IMG/VR virus record: IMGVR_UViG_3300014205_000173
Source: a virus
Lineage: Duplodnaviria > Caudoviricetes
Length of the DNA: 64,000 bases
Strand: one strand, 5' to 3'
The notes under the pieces were generated by a model. It worked only from the letters and a program-made list of their open reading frames with translations. It did not search any database and was not told where the DNA came from. The position numbers and the translations under genes are program-made. This document shows, in pieces, positions 3,729 to 62,106 of this stretch. Position 1 is the stretch's first letter; every line of letters starts with the position of its first letter.

Positions 3729-3768
3729 TTTATACGACAAACACCTTTGTTTGTCAAACTCTGGCCTA
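3729..3768 (-). promoter_or_regulatory. sigma70-like promoter with upstream GGCC box
   Basis: TTGACA-17-TATAAA; GGCC at 3763-3766. Confidence 0.7.
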
Positions 3769-27923: not shown

Positions 27924-28011
27924 TGGATCTGAGAGTGAGATTTGAACTCACGATGTGGTTTCCCAGCAGGATTACAAATCCTGTGCAATCGACCAACTAT
28001 GCGATCCCAGA
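27924..28011 (-). tRNA. tRNA-Thr(TGT) with long variable arm
   Basis: Stem CAGGA/TCCTG, loop TT-TGT-AA, variable arm CTGGGAAACCACATC, CCA. Confidence 0.8.
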
Positions 28012-39279: not shown

Positions 39280-40512
39280 CTATCCCATTAATTCTACAAG
39301 ATATTTAATGGTTACTTGATCTGGTTTGTATACAATGAATTCGTCATTTCTAAGATCTGCACCCTTAACGCCATATGCAGAATGAAAATCTCCCTTTTTT
39401 CTCAAAACATTCCAATTTAAATCATAACACCAAGAAGAATGCTTATGGATCAAAAGTTGATTTCCAACATGAAAATCAAACAAAGACATAAAACATCTAC
39501 TAGAAGAACCTTTTGCCCAATAAGAACCCTTTGCACTTGTATAACCATATGATTTACGAGAAAGTGATGCCCCATAAATACCATCACCGTACATCGAACC
39601 TGTATATACTGCACTTGAAGGTCTAATCATAAGACCACTATCAATAATAGACCACCAATTTTCATTTCTAGAACCATGCCAAAACAATTCAGTCTTTTTG
39701 TTTGAGACTGTTGAAACAAAGTTATTAAACTTCTCTTGAGTTCTATTGTTTACAATTTTCCATGCTGACGTAAATTTATCTTTAATTTCACCAAGTTTGC
39801 TTTTAATAACCTTAACGTCATCATCATCTGCAAGAGAAAATTTAATTCCCATTGCATCAAGAATATTTAGATCAGAAGAATCGTCTTGATTTTTTTGAAC
39901 ATTAGAAACGTTAACTTGTCCTCTCATAATATCCAATGACGATTGTTCTTCAACTAATAGCTTGTTCGTAAAATCAAATTTATCTGGACTATTAAAAGTC
40001 CCAAATTGCAAAACTGCCTCTCTTGTATTTGCAATTCTACGAGGAACTGTTGTCCAAAGTTTAATAAGACAATCGTTAAATCTACTTGTTGAAGAATCAT
40101 TTTTAACTAAAGACGAAAGCTCATTTAAAATTAATTGAGCCGTATCAATTTGTTTTTGTGTAACCTGATCTGTTGTTACTGTATAGTTTGCAGCTACAGA
40201 CTTATTTGCGAATGACTGCAAATCACGTACAATTAAAGCAATACTAGAGTCTTTAATCCCAATAAAATCCCTTTTATTGCTAGCAACAACAAATAATTCT
40301 GTTTGATCTTTATATCCCTTTTTTAACTTCTCTCTATACTTACTTTCCCATTCATTCATTGAATATATTTTTTTACTTGAAGTAACTCCTACTCTTCCCC
40401 ATGTAGCTTCCCACTCACTACTATTAAGTTGTTGCATATCATAATATTTATTATTATTATCTAAGGTTACACAAACTAGTTTTTTTGTTTTATATCCAGA
40501 TTTAACGTCCAT
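39280..40512 (-). CDS. WGR-domain PARP-like ADP-ribosyltransferase
   Basis: NKYY..WGRVG..KKGY WGR domain; WHGSR, MYGDGIYGA, KS.GY, NDEFIVY (H-Y-E triad). Confidence 0.92.
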   Translation of the reverse strand: MDVKSGYKTKKLVCVTLDNNNKYYDMQQLNSSEWEATWGRVGVTSSKKIYSMNEWESKYREKLKKGYKDQTELFVVASNKRDFIGIKDSSIALIVRDLQSFANKSVAANYTVTTDQVTQKQIDTAQLILNELSSLVKNDSSTSRFNDCLIKLWTTVPRRIANTREAVLQFGTFNSPDKFDFTNKLLVEEQSSLDIMRGQVNVSNVQKNQDDSSDLNILDAMGIKFSLADDDDVKVIKSKLGEIKDKFTSAWKIVNNRTQEKFNNFVSTVSNKKTELFWHGSRNENWWSIIDSGLMIRPSSAVYTGSMYGDGIYGASLSRKSYGYTSAKGSYWAKGSSSRCFMSLFDFHVGNQLLIHKHSSWCYDLNWNVLRKKGDFHSAYGVKGADLRNDEFIVYKPDQVTIKYLVELMG

Positions 40513-53141: not shown

Positions 53142-53942
53142 CTACCATTTTATATTTTCAATACACATCAAAATCTTTTGAATATCAGCACAATAAAATC
53201 CCGCACAATTAATACATCCACATTCAATGATTTTACATCCTTCATCCGTTAACGCAATATCCATTACAAATGCCTTTGCAAGCTGATAGACATCAACCAT
53301 TTTTTGGCAAAAATTTGCTGATTCTTCATCAACCATATCTATAATAGATACTCTTCCGTTCATTTTATATTGACTTCCAGTAATTACTTTACCATCTACA
53401 ATATAAAATCTAAATTCCCTATAAATTTTTTTTGGAGAAGAAATCTGAATCATAGTTGATTTTCTTGCAAAATCATTATTCCAATGAATATCACGGGACT
53501 TAATCCATTCATCTTTCGTAAAAAATACTTTACCATCAAATTCTTTAGTGTCCAAAGTTGGCCTAATGAATTTTGGACCATCCCATTCCCACTCATCATC
53601 CATTCTACAAACAATGGAATCGTAATTTAGTAGATTAGATCCATATTTATCTCTATAAATTTCAAAATTATGATTCTCAGTCATGAGAGAACCCGGAATC
53701 CAATCGTACTTCTTTGCTAAACGAGCAAGTTTAATTGCTCCAAATACAAATACATCTTTTCTATCTGTTTGAAAATCTAATTCTTCAATAAAATGACGAA
53801 CATTGATAAATTCATGATCCAAACCTAGTCTTTCTAGTGACGCAACAAGATTCCTATATCCATTTTCACAAAAAAGATTATTCTGTACTAGATAAAACAT
53901 ATCAAATCTTCCTATACATATCTTTATATAAAAAATAAGCAC
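53142..53942 (-). CDS. ATP-grasp domain protein (DUF4343/R2K-like; likely start 53900)
   Basis: FIRP...K.F.G.V, EFRFYIV, VMDIA, IIE....AGFY. Confidence 0.8.
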   Translation of the reverse strand: MLIFYIKICIGRFDMFYLVQNNLFCENGYRNLVASLERLGLDHEFINVRHFIEELDFQTDRKDVFVFGAIKLARLAKKYDWIPGSLMTENHNFEIYRDKYGSNLLNYDSIVCRMDDEWEWDGPKFIRPTLDTKEFDGKVFFTKDEWIKSRDIHWNNDFARKSTMIQISSPKKIYREFRFYIVDGKVITGSQYKMNGRVSIIDMVDEESANFCQKMVDVYQLAKAFVMDIALTDEGCKIIECGCINCAGFYCADIQKILMCIENIKW

Positions 53943-54022
53943 ATGGAGGGATTCGAACCCCCGAAGAACTTTCGTTCAACTGCTTTGCAGGCAGCTTCAA
54001 TTGACCACTCTGACACATGTGC
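53938..54022 (-). tRNA. tRNA-Cys(GCA) with long variable arm
   Basis: Loop CT-GCA-AA, U73, variable hairpin GAAC-GAAA-GTTC. Confidence 0.82.
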
Positions 54023-54044
54023 AATTCAAACAACTATTATATTT

Positions 54045-54272
54045 TTAATAATCTATCTTTATATTAGGCTTTAACTCTTCTGCATATTCACAACACCTTA
54101 CCCATCTTGCCCAACTCAACGGCTTAATGCGAAGAAGACCTAATCCAACTGGAGCATCTTTCATTTTTTTTAATTGTTCCATTTTATACAAAAAAAATGG
54201 ATAGGTTACATATTGATTAATCCATAAAACAAAAACTCTACAATACCACAACTTACTTTTTTCTATTTTCAT
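54045..54272 (-). CDS. hypothetical protein
   Basis: ORF between tRNAs with AGGAG RBS. Confidence 0.6.
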   Translation of the reverse strand: MKIEKSKLWYCRVFVLWINQYVTYPFFLYKMEQLKKMKDAPVGLGLLRIKPLSWARWVRCCEYAEELKPNIKIDY

Positions 54273-54302
54273 TATTATCTCCTTTTTTCATCTTTTATAA
54301 AG

Positions 54303-54378
54303 TGGTCAGGATGGTCAGGATCGAACTGACGACATCTCGCTCCCAAAGCGAGTGCTCTACCATCTGAGCTACACCCTG
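54303..54378 (-). tRNA. tRNA-Pro(TGG)
   Basis: Stem CTCGC/GCGAG, loop TT-TGG-GA; CCA. Confidence 0.93.
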
Positions 54379-54393
54379 ACAATTCAAAAACTA

Positions 54394-54538
54394 AGGTAAG
54401 AAAAGTGAGATTCGAACTCACACAAATAGGTCTTCCCTGTTTCGAGAAACAAGCAATCACGTTAATTGCCTGTTTTTATCTCTCTCGTCCTTTTTATTAT
54501 AAGGCAAACGGCTATACCAATAACCGAATATTCTTACC
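54394..54538 (-). ncRNA. 145-nt tRNA-like RNA with extra arms
   Basis: Closing stem GGTAAGAA/TTCTTACC, D-like arm CGGTTA-TTGGTA-TAGCCG, perfect T-arm GTGAG-TTCGAAT-CTCAC, three internal hairpins. Confidence 0.7.
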
Positions 54539-54548
54539 AAATTTAAAA

Positions 54549-54625
54549 TGGGGTGGCTGAAGAGGTTCGAACTCTCTACCTTCTGACTCACAATCAGACG
54601 TTCTTCCAAATGAACTACAACCACC
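54549..54625 (-). tRNA. tRNA-His(GTG)
   Basis: Loop TT-GTG-AG, G-1:C73, CCA. Confidence 0.92.
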
Positions 54626-54655
54626 ATAAAATTTTTTGCTCCAATTAAAAAAATT

Positions 54656-54731
54656 TGGCTCCCCCACATGGGCTCGAACCACGAACCTACGGATTAACAA
54701 TCCGCCGCTCTACCGATTGAGCTATAGGGGA
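54656..54731 (-). tRNA. tRNA-Asn(GTT)
   Basis: Loop TT-GTT-AA, G73, CCA. Confidence 0.93.
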
Positions 54732-54739
54732 ACATTAAA

Positions 54740-55187
54740 CAGAGCACCTGATTACTTACTACTACGATTTTCATCGCCAACTTTTAACCTTGGATGAATC
54801 ATCATCTGTATTAAAATGTTGTTTGTAGTCTGGACCATGCCATAACCATGAGTCCTTGCTTGAAACCCATTCCATCCTTAGTAGAAGTTGGTATTTCAAT
54901 AGGATTTCTTTTAGGTCCCTACCGTCTGGCCTCTACACATTCCATATTTCCTAATTCCGAATGGGAATTCAGCCCATTATCTTCTCTTTTGGAGGGAGAC
55001 GCTCTAACTTAAGCTACTTCACAGAAATATGTTAGCTCGGCGTTGTCTCAATGCTAGCTAGTTCATTAGGGAGTTCACCGCAAATATAGAATTTTTTACC
55101 AGAAAATTTATATTTGTTTGATTTGATAGGTTTTTCAATCATAGTTTCCTATGAAAGCTGCTATTCAGTTTACAGTCAGGTGCTCTG
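54740..55187 (-). ncRNA. host of the intron: 12-bp hairpin with Asn anticodon loop
   Basis: Exons 55187-55172 and 54754-54740 join to CAGAGCACCTGA-CTGTTAA-TCAGGTGCTCTG. Confidence 0.75.
54755..55171 (-). ncRNA. group I intron (tRNA-intron/IC3-like, no ORF)
   Basis: P1 CTGT/GCAG with U.G; P10 CTGAATA/TAATCAG; P2 TCATAG-GAAA-CTATGA; Q ACAACGCCGAGCTAA; R TGTAGAGGCCAGACGG; S GCATGGTCC; terminal G. Confidence 0.85.
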
Positions 55188-55237
55188 CAAATTATTAATG
55201 CAAGAGCAAAAAATCTTATTAGTTTTTCAAAGAACAA

Positions 55238-55357
55238 TTTGGTTTGGCAAATTCTATTGTGCTGGATAGTTAGTTTCGTTTACTCGATATCTGACGAATA
55301 CGCAGCGACCCTTGAGACGTTATCTCTTCGAATTATACAACTATCTCTCAAACCAAA
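55238..55357 (-). ncRNA. candidate structured RNA of unknown class (strand inferred)
   Basis: Nested stems TTTGGTTTG/CAAACCAAA and GATAGTT/AACTATC with internal hairpins; GC-richer and non-coding. Confidence 0.45.
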
Positions 55358-55367
55358 AACACTTCAG

Positions 55368-56000
55368 TTACACCTGAATTAATTTATCAGCCAAACTTTC
55401 ATTTCTAGGAACAATAATTTCAAAGTATTTCTCATTAGTTTTAATTATGTGTTCTTTGTCATTAAGTTCCTTATCTGAGTTAACGATATTAATAGCATAA
55501 TCTTTCTTGGAAAAATATTCTGGATTAGACTTAAACAAAGCAACAATCTTTGGATTACTTCTAAATGCAATAGTTTTTTGATTAAAAGTAATAAAAGCTT
55601 TAGTTGGTCCATCGTTGGTTTCAACCATTCCACAAACATTAAAGTTAGGAAATGTCCAAACATTGTCAGAACAAAACTGAAAAAGATAGTGATTAAAATA
55701 CGTATTTTCTTTTTCAAAATGTTCTTTTGTAAAATTATCAAAATTATTTTCAATTTCAAATTCAAGTTTGTTAAAAACATATCCTCTAAAATCAATACCA
55801 GAAAAATCTAAAAAGTCTTTAATTACAAAGCTATTTTTTATGTGAGAAACAATATATTTATCAACCGTTTCTTTAACAAATTTTTTAACAGTCATATAGG
55901 AATATAAATGTTTTTCAGACTTAATTACTTCAAAAACCTTTATCGGGTTTTTAATAATACCCATATTGTCGTGGCAAATATGACCTAACAAAATTTCCAT
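55368..56000 (-). CDS. hypothetical protein
   Basis: 210-aa ORF. Confidence 0.7.
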   Translation of the reverse strand: MEILLGHICHDNMGIIKNPIKVFEVIKSEKHLYSYMTVKKFVKETVDKYIVSHIKNSFVIKDFLDFSGIDFRGYVFNKLEFEIENNFDNFTKEHFEKENTYFNHYLFQFCSDNVWTFPNFNVCGMVETNDGPTKAFITFNQKTIAFRSNPKIVALFKSNPEYFSKKDYAINIVNSDKELNDKEHIIKTNEKYFEIIVPRNESLADKLIQV

Positions 56001-56714: not shown

Positions 56715-57215
56715 CTAATTAATTATACTATTATATTTTACACAATAACCATTAGAATTTTCTGTTTTAATTAAATTATTATTTGAATCATATTCAAGCT
56801 TTTCCCAATAACCACCAGCACCTTCTTCTTTAATTAAATTATTATTGGAATCATATTCAAACTCTACAAAATAACCACTACTACATTCTTGTTTAATTAA
56901 ATTACCTTTATCGTCAAAATGTTTTTTATAACCCTCTTTTTCTACAATCAAATTAGATAAATTCACTTCTTCTAAAATCTTAATCTTATCAGTTACTGAT
57001 TTATTTCCTTCTGTTTTAATTTCTCCTAAAGCTTCTACCTTAAAAACTTTAGTGTCTTTCTTTGGATAGTAATATTCAAATACATCATATAAGTCTTGAC
57101 AGAAATGAAACCCATTTTTACACATTATTAATTTACCGTCTAAATTATATGTTTGCCCAACTTCATAAAGTTGGTCTTTACATTTACCATTTTCTGTTGC
57201 CTTATAACCAATCAT
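56715..57215 (-). CDS. MIGYKAT-family paralog
   Basis: Same domain and repeats. Confidence 0.9.
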   Translation of the reverse strand: MIGYKATENGKCKDQLYEVGQTYNLDGKLIMCKNGFHFCQDLYDVFEYYYPKKDTKVFKVEALGEIKTEGNKSVTDKIKILEEVNLSNLIVEKEGYKKHFDDKGNLIKQECSSGYFVEFEYDSNNNLIKEEGAGGYWEKLEYDSNNNLIKTENSNGYCVKYNSIIN

Positions 57216-57220
57216 ATTAA

Positions 57221-57946
57221 TTATCCTTTACCATATTCTATGTCAATACATTCATTGTTTTCATCATATTTAAATTTTACCCAATTACCATTAGAATGAT
57301 CTCTTTTAATTAAATTATTATTTGAATCATATTCATCCTTTTCCCAATCACCATCAGAATTTTCATATTTAATTAAATTATTGTTTTCGTCATATTCAAA
57401 CTCTTTCCAATATCCATTAGAATATTGTTCTTTGATTACATCATTATTTGAATTATATTCCTTTTTTGCCCAATTACCATAAGAATATTCTTTTTTAATT
57501 AAATTGCTATTTAAATCATATTCATATTTCTCCCAAGAACCTCCAGAACATTCTGTTTTAATACAATTATTATTTTCATCATATTCAAACCTTTCCCAAG
57601 AGCCCTCAGAAGAATCTTCTCTTTTAATATAATTTCTTTTATCATCAAAATACTTTTTAATACCATATTTTTCTATAATCAAATTAGATAGTTTAACTTC
57701 TTCTAAAATCTTAATTTTATCAGTTACTGATTTATTTCCTTCAGTATCAATATTACCTAAAGCTTCTACATTAAAAACTTTGATATCTTTATTTGGATAG
57801 TAATATTCAAATACATCATATAAGTCTTGACAGAAATGAAACCCATTTTTACATATTTTCATTTTACCATCTAAAGTATATATTTCCCCAACTTCATAAA
57901 GCTGGTTTTTACATTTTCCATTTTTAGTTGCTTTATAACCAATCAT
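57221..57946 (-). CDS. MIGYKAT-family paralog (longest, 241 aa)
   Basis: Same domain, about 6 repeats. Confidence 0.9.
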   Translation of the reverse strand: MIGYKATKNGKCKNQLYEVGEIYTLDGKMKICKNGFHFCQDLYDVFEYYYPNKDIKVFNVEALGNIDTEGNKSVTDKIKILEEVKLSNLIIEKYGIKKYFDDKRNYIKREDSSEGSWERFEYDENNNCIKTECSGGSWEKYEYDLNSNLIKKEYSYGNWAKKEYNSNNDVIKEQYSNGYWKEFEYDENNNLIKYENSDGDWEKDEYDSNNNLIKRDHSNGNWVKFKYDENNECIDIEYGKG

Positions 57947-57968
57947 ATTTATTTTCCTTTTTACCCAA

Positions 57969-58499
57969 TCAACATAAGGATTCTGTTTTAATTAAATTAT
58001 TGTTTGAATCATATTCATATTTTTCCCAATAACCCTCAGAATCTTCATATTTAATTAAATTATTGTTTTCGTCATATTCCCATTTTTCCCAAGAATCACC
58101 AGAATATTCCGCTTTAATTAAATTATTATTTTCATCATACTCAAACTTTTCCCAAAAACCATCAGAATATTCTGTTTTAATATAATTATCTTTGTCATCA
58201 AAATACTTTTTAATACCGTATTTTTCTACAATCAAATTGCTTAAACTAACTTCTTCTAAAATCATAATCTTATCAGTAACTGATTTATTTTCTTCTGTTT
58301 CAATATTACCTAAAGCTTCTATTTTAAAAACTTTAGTGTCTTTATTTGGATAGTAATATTCAAAAACATCAATTAAATCTTTACAAAAGTGAAAACCTTT
58401 TTCACACATTTTCATTTTGCCATCCAAAGTATACGTTTGCCCAACTTCATAAAGTTGGTCTTTACATTTACCATTTTCTGTTGCTTTATAACCAATCAT
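57969..58499 (-). CDS. MIGYKAT-family paralog
   Basis: Same domain and repeats. Confidence 0.9.
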   Translation of the reverse strand: MIGYKATENGKCKDQLYEVGQTYTLDGKMKMCEKGFHFCKDLIDVFEYYYPNKDTKVFKIEALGNIETEENKSVTDKIMILEEVSLSNLIVEKYGIKKYFDDKDNYIKTEYSDGFWEKFEYDENNNLIKAEYSGDSWEKWEYDENNNLIKYEDSEGYWEKYEYDSNNNLIKTESLC

Positions 58500-58975
58500 A
58501 TTGATAGTCCTTTACCATTTATTAATTTAATAGGATTGCTATTTTCGTCATATTCACATTTTTCCCAATAACCCTTGGAATCCTCACGTTTAATTCGATC
58601 ACCATTTTCATTATATTCATATTTTACCCAATAACCATAAGAATATTCTTCTTTAATTAAGTTGCAATTATTATCAAAATATTTTTTATAACCATTTTTT
58701 TCTACAACCATATTACTTAAATTAAGTTCTTCTAAAATCTTAATCTTATCTGTTACTGATTTGCCATATACGGTTTCAGTATTTCCTAAAGCCTCTACTT
58801 TAAAAACTTTTATATTTTTATTTTCTGGATAATAAAAAAATACAGTATATAAATCTTCACAGAAATGAAATCCTCTTTTACATATTTCCATTTCACCATC
58901 TAAAGTATATGTTTGGCCAACTTCATAAAGTTGGTTTATACATTTCCCATTATAAGTTGCTTTATAACCAATCAT
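58496..58975 (-). CDS. MIGYKAT-family paralog
   Basis: Same domain and repeats. Confidence 0.9.
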   Translation of the reverse strand: MIGYKATYNGKCINQLYEVGQTYTLDGEMEICKRGFHFCEDLYTVFFYYPENKNIKVFKVEALGNTETVYGKSVTDKIKILEELNLSNMVVEKNGYKKYFDNNCNLIKEEYSYGYWVKYEYNENGDRIKREDSKGYWEKCEYDENSNPIKLINGKGLSI

Positions 58976-61293: not shown

Positions 61294-62106
61294 CTACCAA
61301 TCAACTTCAAATAAAATAAACTCTCCATCACAAGCTTTACTGCATTCTAAATAGTAAATTTCTCTAATTTTTGCAAAAATTGGATCTTCGTCTTTTACAT
61401 ATATACTCATGTAATTTTTACCACCACGTTTTAATTCTACAAAATCTTCATTCAACAAATAATGCCAATGATCAATATATGGAATTACTGGAATTGTATG
61501 TCTCCAACGTCCACAAGAACCTATATAATGACTAAATATAAAGAAAATTCTTGCTACATCATTTTCTTCTAAAGGAGGAGTATTGTAGCCTATTTTATAT
61601 TCTTCTTTAGTAAATCCTAATTCCAATATGTTTTTCTTCACAATATCTGTTTCTAAATTCCCATATATTCCCCTGAAATTAAAACCATATGTTTTTTCAA
61701 GAACATGAGTTGCCTTATTAAAATCATAAAGATAGTTAGTTATTCCATTCCTTTTTACTTTTATTAAACAGTCCTTTAAATTTGCTCTTTTCTTACTTAA
61801 ATCAAATCCTAAAATTTTTTCATTAATTTTATCAACTTCGTCTAAACATTCTTTAATTATTTTTCGCCCAACAAAAGAAATGTTATATTTTTCATTTTCA
61901 AAAATATCATACATATAAAAACATTCATCTTTTTCGAATGTAGAAATAGTACTTAAAATAGATGCCCCAAGAATAGGATCTTTTTCTATTAAAGAAGCTG
62001 TTCTCTCACAAATTTCAAAATTATTTTTTTCTTTAAAATTTTTAATGAATTTTATTGAGTCTTTTTCAATATCATTCACTGTTCTTTTTATTATATTTTT
62101 TTTCAT
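61294..62106 (-). CDS. hypothetical protein
   Basis: 270-aa ORF. Confidence 0.7.
   Translation of the reverse strand: MKKNIIKRTVNDIEKDSIKFIKNFKEKNNFEICERTASLIEKDPILGASILSTISTFEKDECFYMYDIFENEKYNISFVGRKIIKECLDEVDKINEKILGFDLSKKRANLKDCLIKVKRNGITNYLYDFNKATHVLEKTYGFNFRGIYGNLETDIVKKNILELGFTKEEYKIGYNTPPLEENDVARIFFIFSHYIGSCGRWRHTIPVIPYIDHWHYLLNEDFVELKRGGKNYMSIYVKDEDPIFAKIREIYYLECSKACDGEFILFEVDW

Follow-up and report, generated by a model that had tools for sequence, protein, structure and literature searches.

The DNA analysed here, a stretch of 64,000 nucleotides (nt) from a tailed phage of Caudoviricetes (IMG/VR record IMGVR_UViG_3300014205_000173; hereafter the window), carries on its minus strand, at positions 54394-54538, a 145-nt segment that is free of open reading frames (ORFs) and reads as a tRNA-like RNA. 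On balance, we favour the view that this segment is a gene for a small, stable, non-decoding tRNA mimic of a narrow huge-phage lineage, and that the RNA would act by occupying, or by being acted on by, a protein that recognises class II tRNAs. Its body comprises an acceptor of 7 base pairs (bp) followed by A73, a D arm whose loop contains G18 G19, a T arm whose loop is of the standard kind and a long hairpin resembling a variable arm; the anticodon arm is replaced by two hairpins (H2 and H3), whose stems are conserved and whose loops are not. The segment had been pointed out in a preliminary description made from the letters of the window; what was observed there is confirmed, and the interpretation offered there is partly supported by the present analysis.

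Two homologues provide the evidence for the conserved fold. The covariance model R1, built from the window sequence alone, was used to search the contigs of the closest relatives and matched over its full length at positions 18793-18962 of contig L015 (Logan SRR34848657; 40.8 bits, E = 7e-8) and at positions 16866-17021 of contig L044 (ENA ERZ22308622, a contig of 120.5 kb; 41.9 bits, E = 6e-9). In syntenic genes, the proteins of the three phages are 50-77% identical, and the RNA sequences have diverged strongly. When the refined seven-helix structure was laid on the model-derived three-row alignment (A3), 94.4% of the 125 pair cells were paired and 21 of the 44 pairs had changed on both sides. 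With the 3' partners slid by 1-3 columns as a control, 37-49% of the cells were paired and 2-3 pairs were changed on both sides; 500 shuffles gave a mean of 8.9 such pairs, and none of them reached the observed 21. RNAalifold, as an independent prediction, returned the same seven helices with 22 of 44 pairs compensatory. The acceptor (helix 1) has 8 pairs, 5 of them changed on both sides, and 95.8% of its cells are paired; 2 of the 4 pairs of the D stem (helix 2) are compensatory, as are 3 of the 4 pairs of H2 (helix 3, 100% paired) and 9 of the 16 pairs of H3 (helices 4 and 5); the variable-arm-like hairpin H4 (helix 6, 7 pairs) is 85.7% paired, and the T stem (helix 7) 100%. Considering the size of the effect and the outcome of the slid control, a chance or artefactual structure is very unlikely, despite the three rows and the fitted alignment. 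The search for covarying phage homologues that the preliminary description had proposed has in this way yielded two full-length ones. The window copy taken by itself points in the same direction: its minimum free energy (MFE) is -46.3 kcal/mol (z = -4.6), none of 200 shuffles is as stable, and the MFE fold contains all the hairpins listed below.

The covariation also bears on the possibility that a tRNA gene is decaying here, such as one of class II that lost its anticodon arm to an insertion or an intron remnant. Its acceptor is like that of the tRNA-Ser(UGA) of the window and its T arm is identical to that of this tRNA, the 5' half of the L044 copy resembles the tRNA-Tyr of a fourth relative (contigs L045/L046), and group I introns and homing-endonuclease-like genes are frequent in the neighbourhood. 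Nevertheless, the three diverged copies keep seven helices, the inserted ones included, by means of the 21 compensatory pair changes, and because these changes keep all helices a pseudogene can be set aside; moreover, the insert is not long enough for a group I intron, and Rfam matches no intron in it. The Intron_gpI model found nothing in 53800-55400 at E values up to 10, and the same model gives 108-109 bits on the introns in the transfer-messenger RNA (tmRNA) genes of the relatives. We therefore regard decay as very improbable. The tRNA-Tyr gene of the fourth relative (GUA anticodon; L045 14710-14809), the 5' half of which is near the L044 copy, has in its T arm a 10-nt tandem duplication (UUCGAUUCCG twice).

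The common architecture of the three copies is as follows. The 7-bp acceptor is stacked straight onto the 5-bp T stem and is separated by a 2-nt linker from the D arm, which has a 3-4-bp stem and a 10-nt loop with invariant UUGGU. H2 consists of 4-9 bp and, in all copies, an 8-nt loop of variable sequence; it is followed by a purine-rich junction of the pattern AC...AGrG, which runs into the base of H3. The base of H3 is conserved, and its apex varies in length and sequence between the copies. H4 (6-7 bp) begins 1-2 nt after H3 and is placed and built like the variable arm of a class II tRNA; the T arm follows 2-4 nt after it in all copies, with a conserved UUCrAwU loop. A73 is found in all three copies, always opposite U-1, which makes an 8th acceptor pair (U-1:A73) possible in each of them, an 8/5 arrangement being indistinguishable from 7/5 with a discriminator A73. 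CCA is not encoded in any copy, the tails being CCU, CUU and AUU. By these features the RNA has the body of a tRNA: the acceptor abuts a 5-bp T stem, the T loop fits UUCRANY, the D loop contains GG, and helices 1, 2 and 7 covary. The parts of the window copy and its two neighbours, all of them on the minus strand, are as follows.

54394-54538, minus strand: whole 145-nt element in the limits of the preliminary description (MFE z, self-match to the covariance models R1 and R2, two full-length homologues)
54397-54536, minus strand: conserved core from U-1 to the discriminator A73 (A3 columns 3-189)
54529-54535, minus strand: acceptor 5' strand AAGAAUA (helix 1)
54509-54526, minus strand: D arm (helix 2), the conserved part being the 4-bp CGGU/GCCG and the 10-nt loop UAUUGGUAUA with G18 G19
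54489-54504, minus strand: hairpin H2, CCUU-AUAAUAAA-AAGG (helix 3)
54483-54488, minus strand: purine-rich junction ACGAGA, single-stranded and partly conserved (A3 columns 66-74)
54444-54482, minus strand: long hairpin H3, in which a GAGA/UCUC base is followed by an internal loop and a 12-bp stem capped by an ACG loop (helices 4 and 5)
54424-54442, minus strand: hairpin H4, AAACAGG-GAAGA-CCUAUUU, at the position of the class II long variable arm (helix 6)
54405-54421, minus strand: T arm GUGAG-UUCGAAU-CUCAC (helix 7)
54398-54404, minus strand: acceptor 3' strand UUUUCUU, abutting the T stem (helix 1)
54549-54624, minus strand: tRNA-His(GUG), upstream neighbour, CCA encoded (ARAGORN and Rfam)
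54303-54378, minus strand: tRNA-Pro(UGG), downstream neighbour, CCA encoded (ARAGORN and Rfam)

The conserved core is more ordinary than the preliminary description had supposed. The closing stem of 8-10 bp reported there does occur in the window copy, where the strands GGUAAGAA/UUCUUACC reach 10 bp across one U.U, the additional pairs being formed by U-1 at 54536 and GG at 54537-54538 (A73 lies at 54397 and is followed by CCU); the homologues keep 7 bp, or 8 with U-1:A73. The 6-bp D stem is likewise a trait of the window copy, whose full D arm reads CGGUUAU-UGGU-AUAGCCG (6-7 bp): its three inner pairs are present in this copy only, and the homologues keep 3-4 bp. The GG of the D loop and the perfect T arm, on the other hand, hold throughout the family, UUGGU being invariant and the T stem fully paired. 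All three central hairpins described in place of the anticodon and variable regions are present on the minus strand; the one with the ACG loop measures 12-13 bp, and the AGG-GAAGA-CCU hairpin grows to 7 bp with one mismatch. The element lies, as described, between tRNA-Pro and tRNA-His with tRNA-like spacing, 10 nt separating the end of tRNA-His(GUG) from the element and 15 nt the element from tRNA-Pro(UGG), as delimited by ARAGORN; the gene order on the minus strand is Asn-His-X-Pro-(75-amino-acid ORF)-Cys, X being the tRNA-like element.

Codon reading by this RNA appears very unlikely from the modelled fold, because the stems of H2 and H3 are conserved and their loops are not. When all 5-bp hairpins with 7-9-nt loops were enumerated in the three copies, none outside the T arm was common to them; a conserved anticodon arm of 5 bp and 7 nt with U33 is missing from the three copies, and in silico deletion of H2, H3 or both did not restore one. 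The H2 loops (AUAAUAAA, ACUAGAUA and CCAAAAAA) have no triplet in common and two of them are without U33. The absence of a canonical anticodon loop and of CCA, stated in the preliminary description, is therefore borne out. Neither ARAGORN at default settings, also with its own intron search (-i), nor Rfam at gathering thresholds called anything at the element, which agrees with the suggestion of an unrecognised class of non-coding RNA; the best permissive Rfam match was tRNA (RF00005), with 19 bits at 54397-54482 against a gathering score of 29. The alternative would be an unusually built tRNA that does decode, H2 supplying an anticodon loop of 8 nt or the anticodon region being interrupted by an intron. 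The H2 loops are indeed 8 nt long in all three copies, and ARAGORN, when forced (80% threshold, introns up to 200 nt), returns a 'tRNA-Ile(UAU) with a 51-nt intron'. This forced model, however, breaks the covarying H2 stem and the 12-13-bp hairpin of H3 and needs a mismatched anticodon stem, and it is rejected by ARAGORN -i at the default threshold and by the Rfam tRNA score given above; together with the lack of an anticodon common to the H2 loops and the outcome of the deletions, this leaves such a tRNA a most improbable explanation.

A non-decoding tRNA mimic with a preserved elbow, as proposed in the preliminary description, is supported, the acceptor, D-loop GG, T loop and overall fold being conserved and covarying in three phages. 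Its making and use may be outlined from its parts. With its elbow and its stack of acceptor and T stem intact, the RNA would be expected to be released from the transcript of the tRNA cluster by RNase P and trimming of the 3' end; co-transcription and tRNA-type processing would be the simplest expectation for the window copy, because its spacing matches that of the flanking tRNAs. CCA would probably be added by a CCA-adding enzyme. Such post-transcriptional addition is plausible, because a tRNA nucleotidyltransferase/poly(A) polymerase relative is encoded at window positions 39280-40512 and three accepted window tRNAs are also without an encoded CCA. Without an anticodon loop the RNA would be barred from codon reading, and it would work via a protein that reads the acceptor, elbow and variable-arm side of class II tRNAs. 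This protein might be a host defence or toxin directed at tRNAs, a charging enzyme that acts independently of the anticodon, or a rescue factor. The first three acceptor pairs differ between the copies, which argues against a single conserved charging identity, and for this reason a binding or decoy role is weakly favoured over that of a carrier.

Several points weigh against the mimic as so described. The family consists of three members from a single phage lineage, and their alignment was fitted to the model. The acceptor varies not only in its first three pairs but also in length, the window copy having two extra outer pairs and a U.U. The genomic context differs, being a tRNA cluster in the window and the vicinity of a tmRNA gene in two relatives. 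Finally, the steps of processing and CCA addition and the existence of a binding partner are matters of inference.

The surroundings of the homologues leave room for another explanation, namely that the element is a cis-acting processing or stability module: tRNA-shaped punctuation to be cut by RNase P/RNase Z, or a terminator, with no function in trans. The acceptor/T stack and the elbow, which RNase P and RNase Z recognise, are intact, and the L015 and L044 copies lie between ORFs. The L015 copy is isolated between its two neighbouring ORFs; about 32 nt upstream of it is the end of an oriented GGCC-N4-11-TTGACA motif, and seven U in a row come after its 3' end. These features, like the two tRNA-like spacers of the window copy, speak for a discrete gene, and U-rich sequence after the 3' end is also in keeping with punctuation. 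As to L044, the nearest such motif precedes an ORF of 68 amino acids that ends 8 nt before the RNA, and this copy is probably on one transcript with the ORF. The punctuation account is opposed by the fact that an acceptor/T minihelix would suffice for it, yet the D stem, H2, H3 and H4 covary; besides, the window copy is flanked by true tRNAs that already give cleavage sites. A scan for generic sigma-70 promoters and terminators made no calls at the putative sites beside the L015 and L044 copies, and the promoter and terminator sites there are accordingly to be read as putative. In our estimate a mainly cis-acting module is unlikely. The motif itself occurs 20 times in the five loci examined, each time (20/20) on the coding strand, and several times a TATAAT-like hexamer comes after it, often about 17 nt downstream; it is probably a promoter with an upstream element of this phage group. 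The window sites, on the minus strand, are at 3766, 10989, 19724, 31373, 40587, 42233 and 62689, and 13 more are located in L015, L044, L026 and L045.

The main rival to the tRNA mimic is that the element is a reduced paralogue of the phage tmRNA, that is, a tRNA-like domain without a working tag which would take part in ribosome rescue or act against it, e.g., by binding SmpB or stalled ribosomes. Genes for tmRNA (RF00023) were found in all three phages. The one on the window's own contig (L026 12489-12855, 77.3 bits) is intron-less with an atypical T loop and was missed by ARAGORN; it lies about 1.4-1.7 kb beyond the left end of the window. Those of L015 (17323-17652, 80.6 bits) and L044 (10378-10726, 61.9 bits) have T loops interrupted by group I introns (Intron_gpI, 107.9 and 109.2 bits) and were not called by ARAGORN either. 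The tags of these phage tmRNAs end in ..AVAA or ..ALAA. The interrupted genes as a whole span L015 17323-17873, L044 10378-11034 and, on a further contig, L011 19586-20250; a further match to a group I intron (64.4 bits) is situated next to tRNA-Met at L015 2848-3047, in a stretch where no gene is called on the forward strand.

Within its clan RF00023 is the best match to two copies of the element and aligns end to end, with 20.4 bits (E = 2e-4) for the L015 copy and 18.2 bits (E = 1.7e-3) for the L044 copy, and in these two phages the element lies downstream of the tmRNA gene, at about 0.9 and 5.8 kb, respectively. The L044 copy has G1-C72, G2-C71, G3.U70 and A73, i.e., the alanine/tmRNA identity set, and each of the other two copies is one transition away from G3.U70 (A3-U70 in L015, G3-C70 in the window); short motifs, namely CUCGAAACAG and G-GAAAGA-C hairpins, are common to the element and the phage tmRNAs. 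These scores are nonetheless far below the gathering score of 47, with an alignment that is confident in the T arm and acceptor only, and the local similarity to the phage tmRNAs does not rise above shuffled controls. Further, G3.U70 is present in one copy of three, the element has a covarying D stem and tmRNA is without one, and reading the three frames of the three copies revealed no common tag frame or C-terminal motif. The window element is about 55 kb away from its tmRNA gene, and the Rfam tRNA model matches this copy better than RF00023 does. Taken together, these facts make descent from the tmRNA an improbable explanation, if the most serious one besides the tRNA mimic.

Among known systems, the element belongs with the phage tRNA-like small RNAs, and its closest analogue is RNA C of phage T4 (species 1 RNA, rnaC; its neighbour is RNA D), the likeness being one of layout and genomic setting only. 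RNA C, a stable RNA of 139 nt, is likewise encoded among the tRNA genes of its phage. In the fold predicted for it, an acceptor-like closing stem, interrupted by U.U mismatches, lies next to a canonical T arm, and long hairpins occupy the site of the anticodon region; no role has yet been assigned to it (PMC3014915). In contrast to the element, the predicted fold of RNA C is without a clear D arm or variable-arm hairpin, and the RNA comes from another phage group and host lineage. Model R2 recovered only tRNA-Leu and tRNA-Ser from the T4 tRNA region and matched neither rnaC nor rnaD; homology to RNA C was thus not found.

With class II tRNAs (Ser, Leu, Tyr) and tRNA-Sec the element shares the acceptor, the D arm with GG, the T arm and, directly ahead of the T stem, a long extra arm, and with tRNA-Leu and tRNA-Tyr also A73; it differs from all of them in having no anticodon arm and one extra helix at the central junction. 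Only the window copy recalls tRNA-Sec, through its lengthened acceptor and its long D stem closed by a loop of 4 nt. These Sec-like traits are not conserved in the homologues, and the score with the Rfam tRNA model is 19 bits against 29. As a candidate, tRNA-Sec (13-bp acceptor/T branch of the 8/5 type, 6-bp D stem with a 4-nt loop, long variable arm, UCA anticodon) was rejected, there being no UCA loop and a conserved D stem of 3-4 bp. The tRNA-like domain of tmRNA likewise combines an acceptor and a T arm with the lack of an anticodon arm, but the pseudoknot ring and the conserved tag frame of tmRNA are not found in the element.

A weaker resemblance is that to YrlA (RF02553), a non-coding RNA with an embedded tRNA-like elbow, and the preliminary description had considered a Y-RNA-like nature. 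A Y-RNA-like RNA of this type would tether a Ro/Rsr protein. A tRNA-like module is present in both, and there is a weak match of 18.9 bits at 54354-54422; this is far below the threshold of 69 and covers the T arm, the 3' strand and part of tRNA-Pro only. The ends of YrlA close the Ro-binding stem on the anticodon side. The topology of the element is the opposite, its ends forming the acceptor stem, and no Ro-type gene was seen among the ORFs scanned, which are not an exhaustive scan of the window. The element was accordingly rejected as a member of YrlA, and we find a Ro-tethering RNA hardly credible.

Allo-tRNAs are defined by 8/4 or 9/3 acceptor/T stems with the anticodon arm kept (PMC5389517; PMC7609411), and irregular allo-tRNA-like sequences with a 'five-stem junction' are known from metagenomes (PMC7609411). 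Like the element, allo-tRNAs combine an irregular tRNA shape with long variable arms and additional stems; some allo-tRNAs proved unusable or uncharged in E. coli. Unlike them, the element has a 5-bp T stem and no anticodon arm, so that none of the three copies falls under the definition of Mukai et al. 2017 (PMC5389517).

The best reading of the distribution is that this family of non-decoding tRNA mimics is restricted to a narrow huge-phage lineage, where restricted means not seen elsewhere with the searches made, of which the motif scans are insensitive. A blastn search with the element against 50,697 GenBank phages gave T-arm matches only, and the exact string of the T arm plus acceptor is absent from IMG/VR. 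Three degenerate motif scans of IMG/VR gave 17, 0 and 1 matches, and one such scan of JGI metagenomes gave 44; no member was left after filtering with R1 and R2, the matches (17, 1 and 44) proving to be ordinary class II tRNAs, intron-like archaeal tRNAs and chance hits. On the complete 'Mahaphage'-type genomes LR756501 and LR756500, R1 and R2 found only tRNAs and spurious hairpins. The best score of R2 on 45 huge-phage contigs of IMG/VR with an R2K gene (8 of them at least 90% complete) was 35 bits, and all of its matches were long-armed tRNAs. There is no copy within 10 kb of the anchor gene in the fourth relative, where a 165-nt match turned out to be two tandem tRNA-Phe genes, and no second copy in the 9.5 kb beyond the left end of the window; the 8 kb beyond the right end, scanned with ARAGORN and not with the RNA models, contain tRNA-Trp only. 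The R2K/ATP-grasp-like gene of the window (53142-53942) is 77% identical to L015 9692-10453, which is located between tRNA-Ala and tRNA-Arg; the R2K gene block has moved between phages, as did the tRNA-like RNA.

It is possible, and we put it forward tentatively, that the element is the first member of a class of phage tRNA-like RNAs not described before, with a body of the class II tRNA/tmRNA type, which would be matured and CCA-tailed, would not decode and would serve in the phage-host conflict over translation, either as a decoy for host defences or toxins that target tRNAs and read the acceptor, elbow and variable arm, or as a carrier charged independently of the anticodon or a modulator of rescue linked to the phage tmRNA. 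Besides helping with codon usage, phage tRNA genes are now regarded as weapons against host defences that cut tRNAs, and a conserved RNA that has the parts for tRNA processing and protein recognition, with the anticodon discarded, amounts to a natural experiment in tRNA mimicry. A new partner or target may come to light through it, such as a defence nuclease, toxin, synthetase or rescue factor, and the RNA provides a second, independent example beside T4 RNA C, the function of which has been unknown for fifty years. Genes of this sort escape tRNA finders and Rfam, so that huge-phage genomes probably hold more of them than have been counted.

The window belongs to an ENA metagenome contig of 287,662 bp with phage gene content, including an NAD-dependent ligase, the tRNA nucleotidyltransferase relative and a transposase; 16 tRNAs lie in the window. 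By protein, the nearest GenBank relatives are the 'uncultured phage' records LR756500, LR756501 and LR756503 of 462-735 kb, with 38-47% identity. A 36-kb contig from a second sample (L102, Logan SRR6484325) encodes a protein identical to that of the 270-amino-acid ORF of the window (61294-62106) with the same neighbour genes, which indicates the same phage; this contig ends before the element. Long variable arms of class II style, in bodies of 85-88 nt, are also found in tRNA-Cys(GCA) at window positions 53938-54022, in the second tRNA-Thr(UGU) at 27924-28011 and in tRNA-Trp(CCA) at 7182-7267 of contig L101. Several tRNAs (Arg-CCU, Thr-UGU and Cys) are without an encoded CCA, which most of the others have. 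Upstream of tRNA-Asn lies an ORF-free stretch of about 450 nt (54740-55187) that is closed by a 12-nt inverted repeat; Rfam finds in it a partial tRNA match (54961-55016, 29.7 bits) and, at E values up to 10, no match to Intron_gpI. The upstream ORF of 210 amino acids is an orphan. Small DUF7666 or RHS-repeat-like proteins form many tandem paralogues at window positions 56715-58975 and 466-1137 and at L026 3160-6730, 10001-11908 and 16811-18168.

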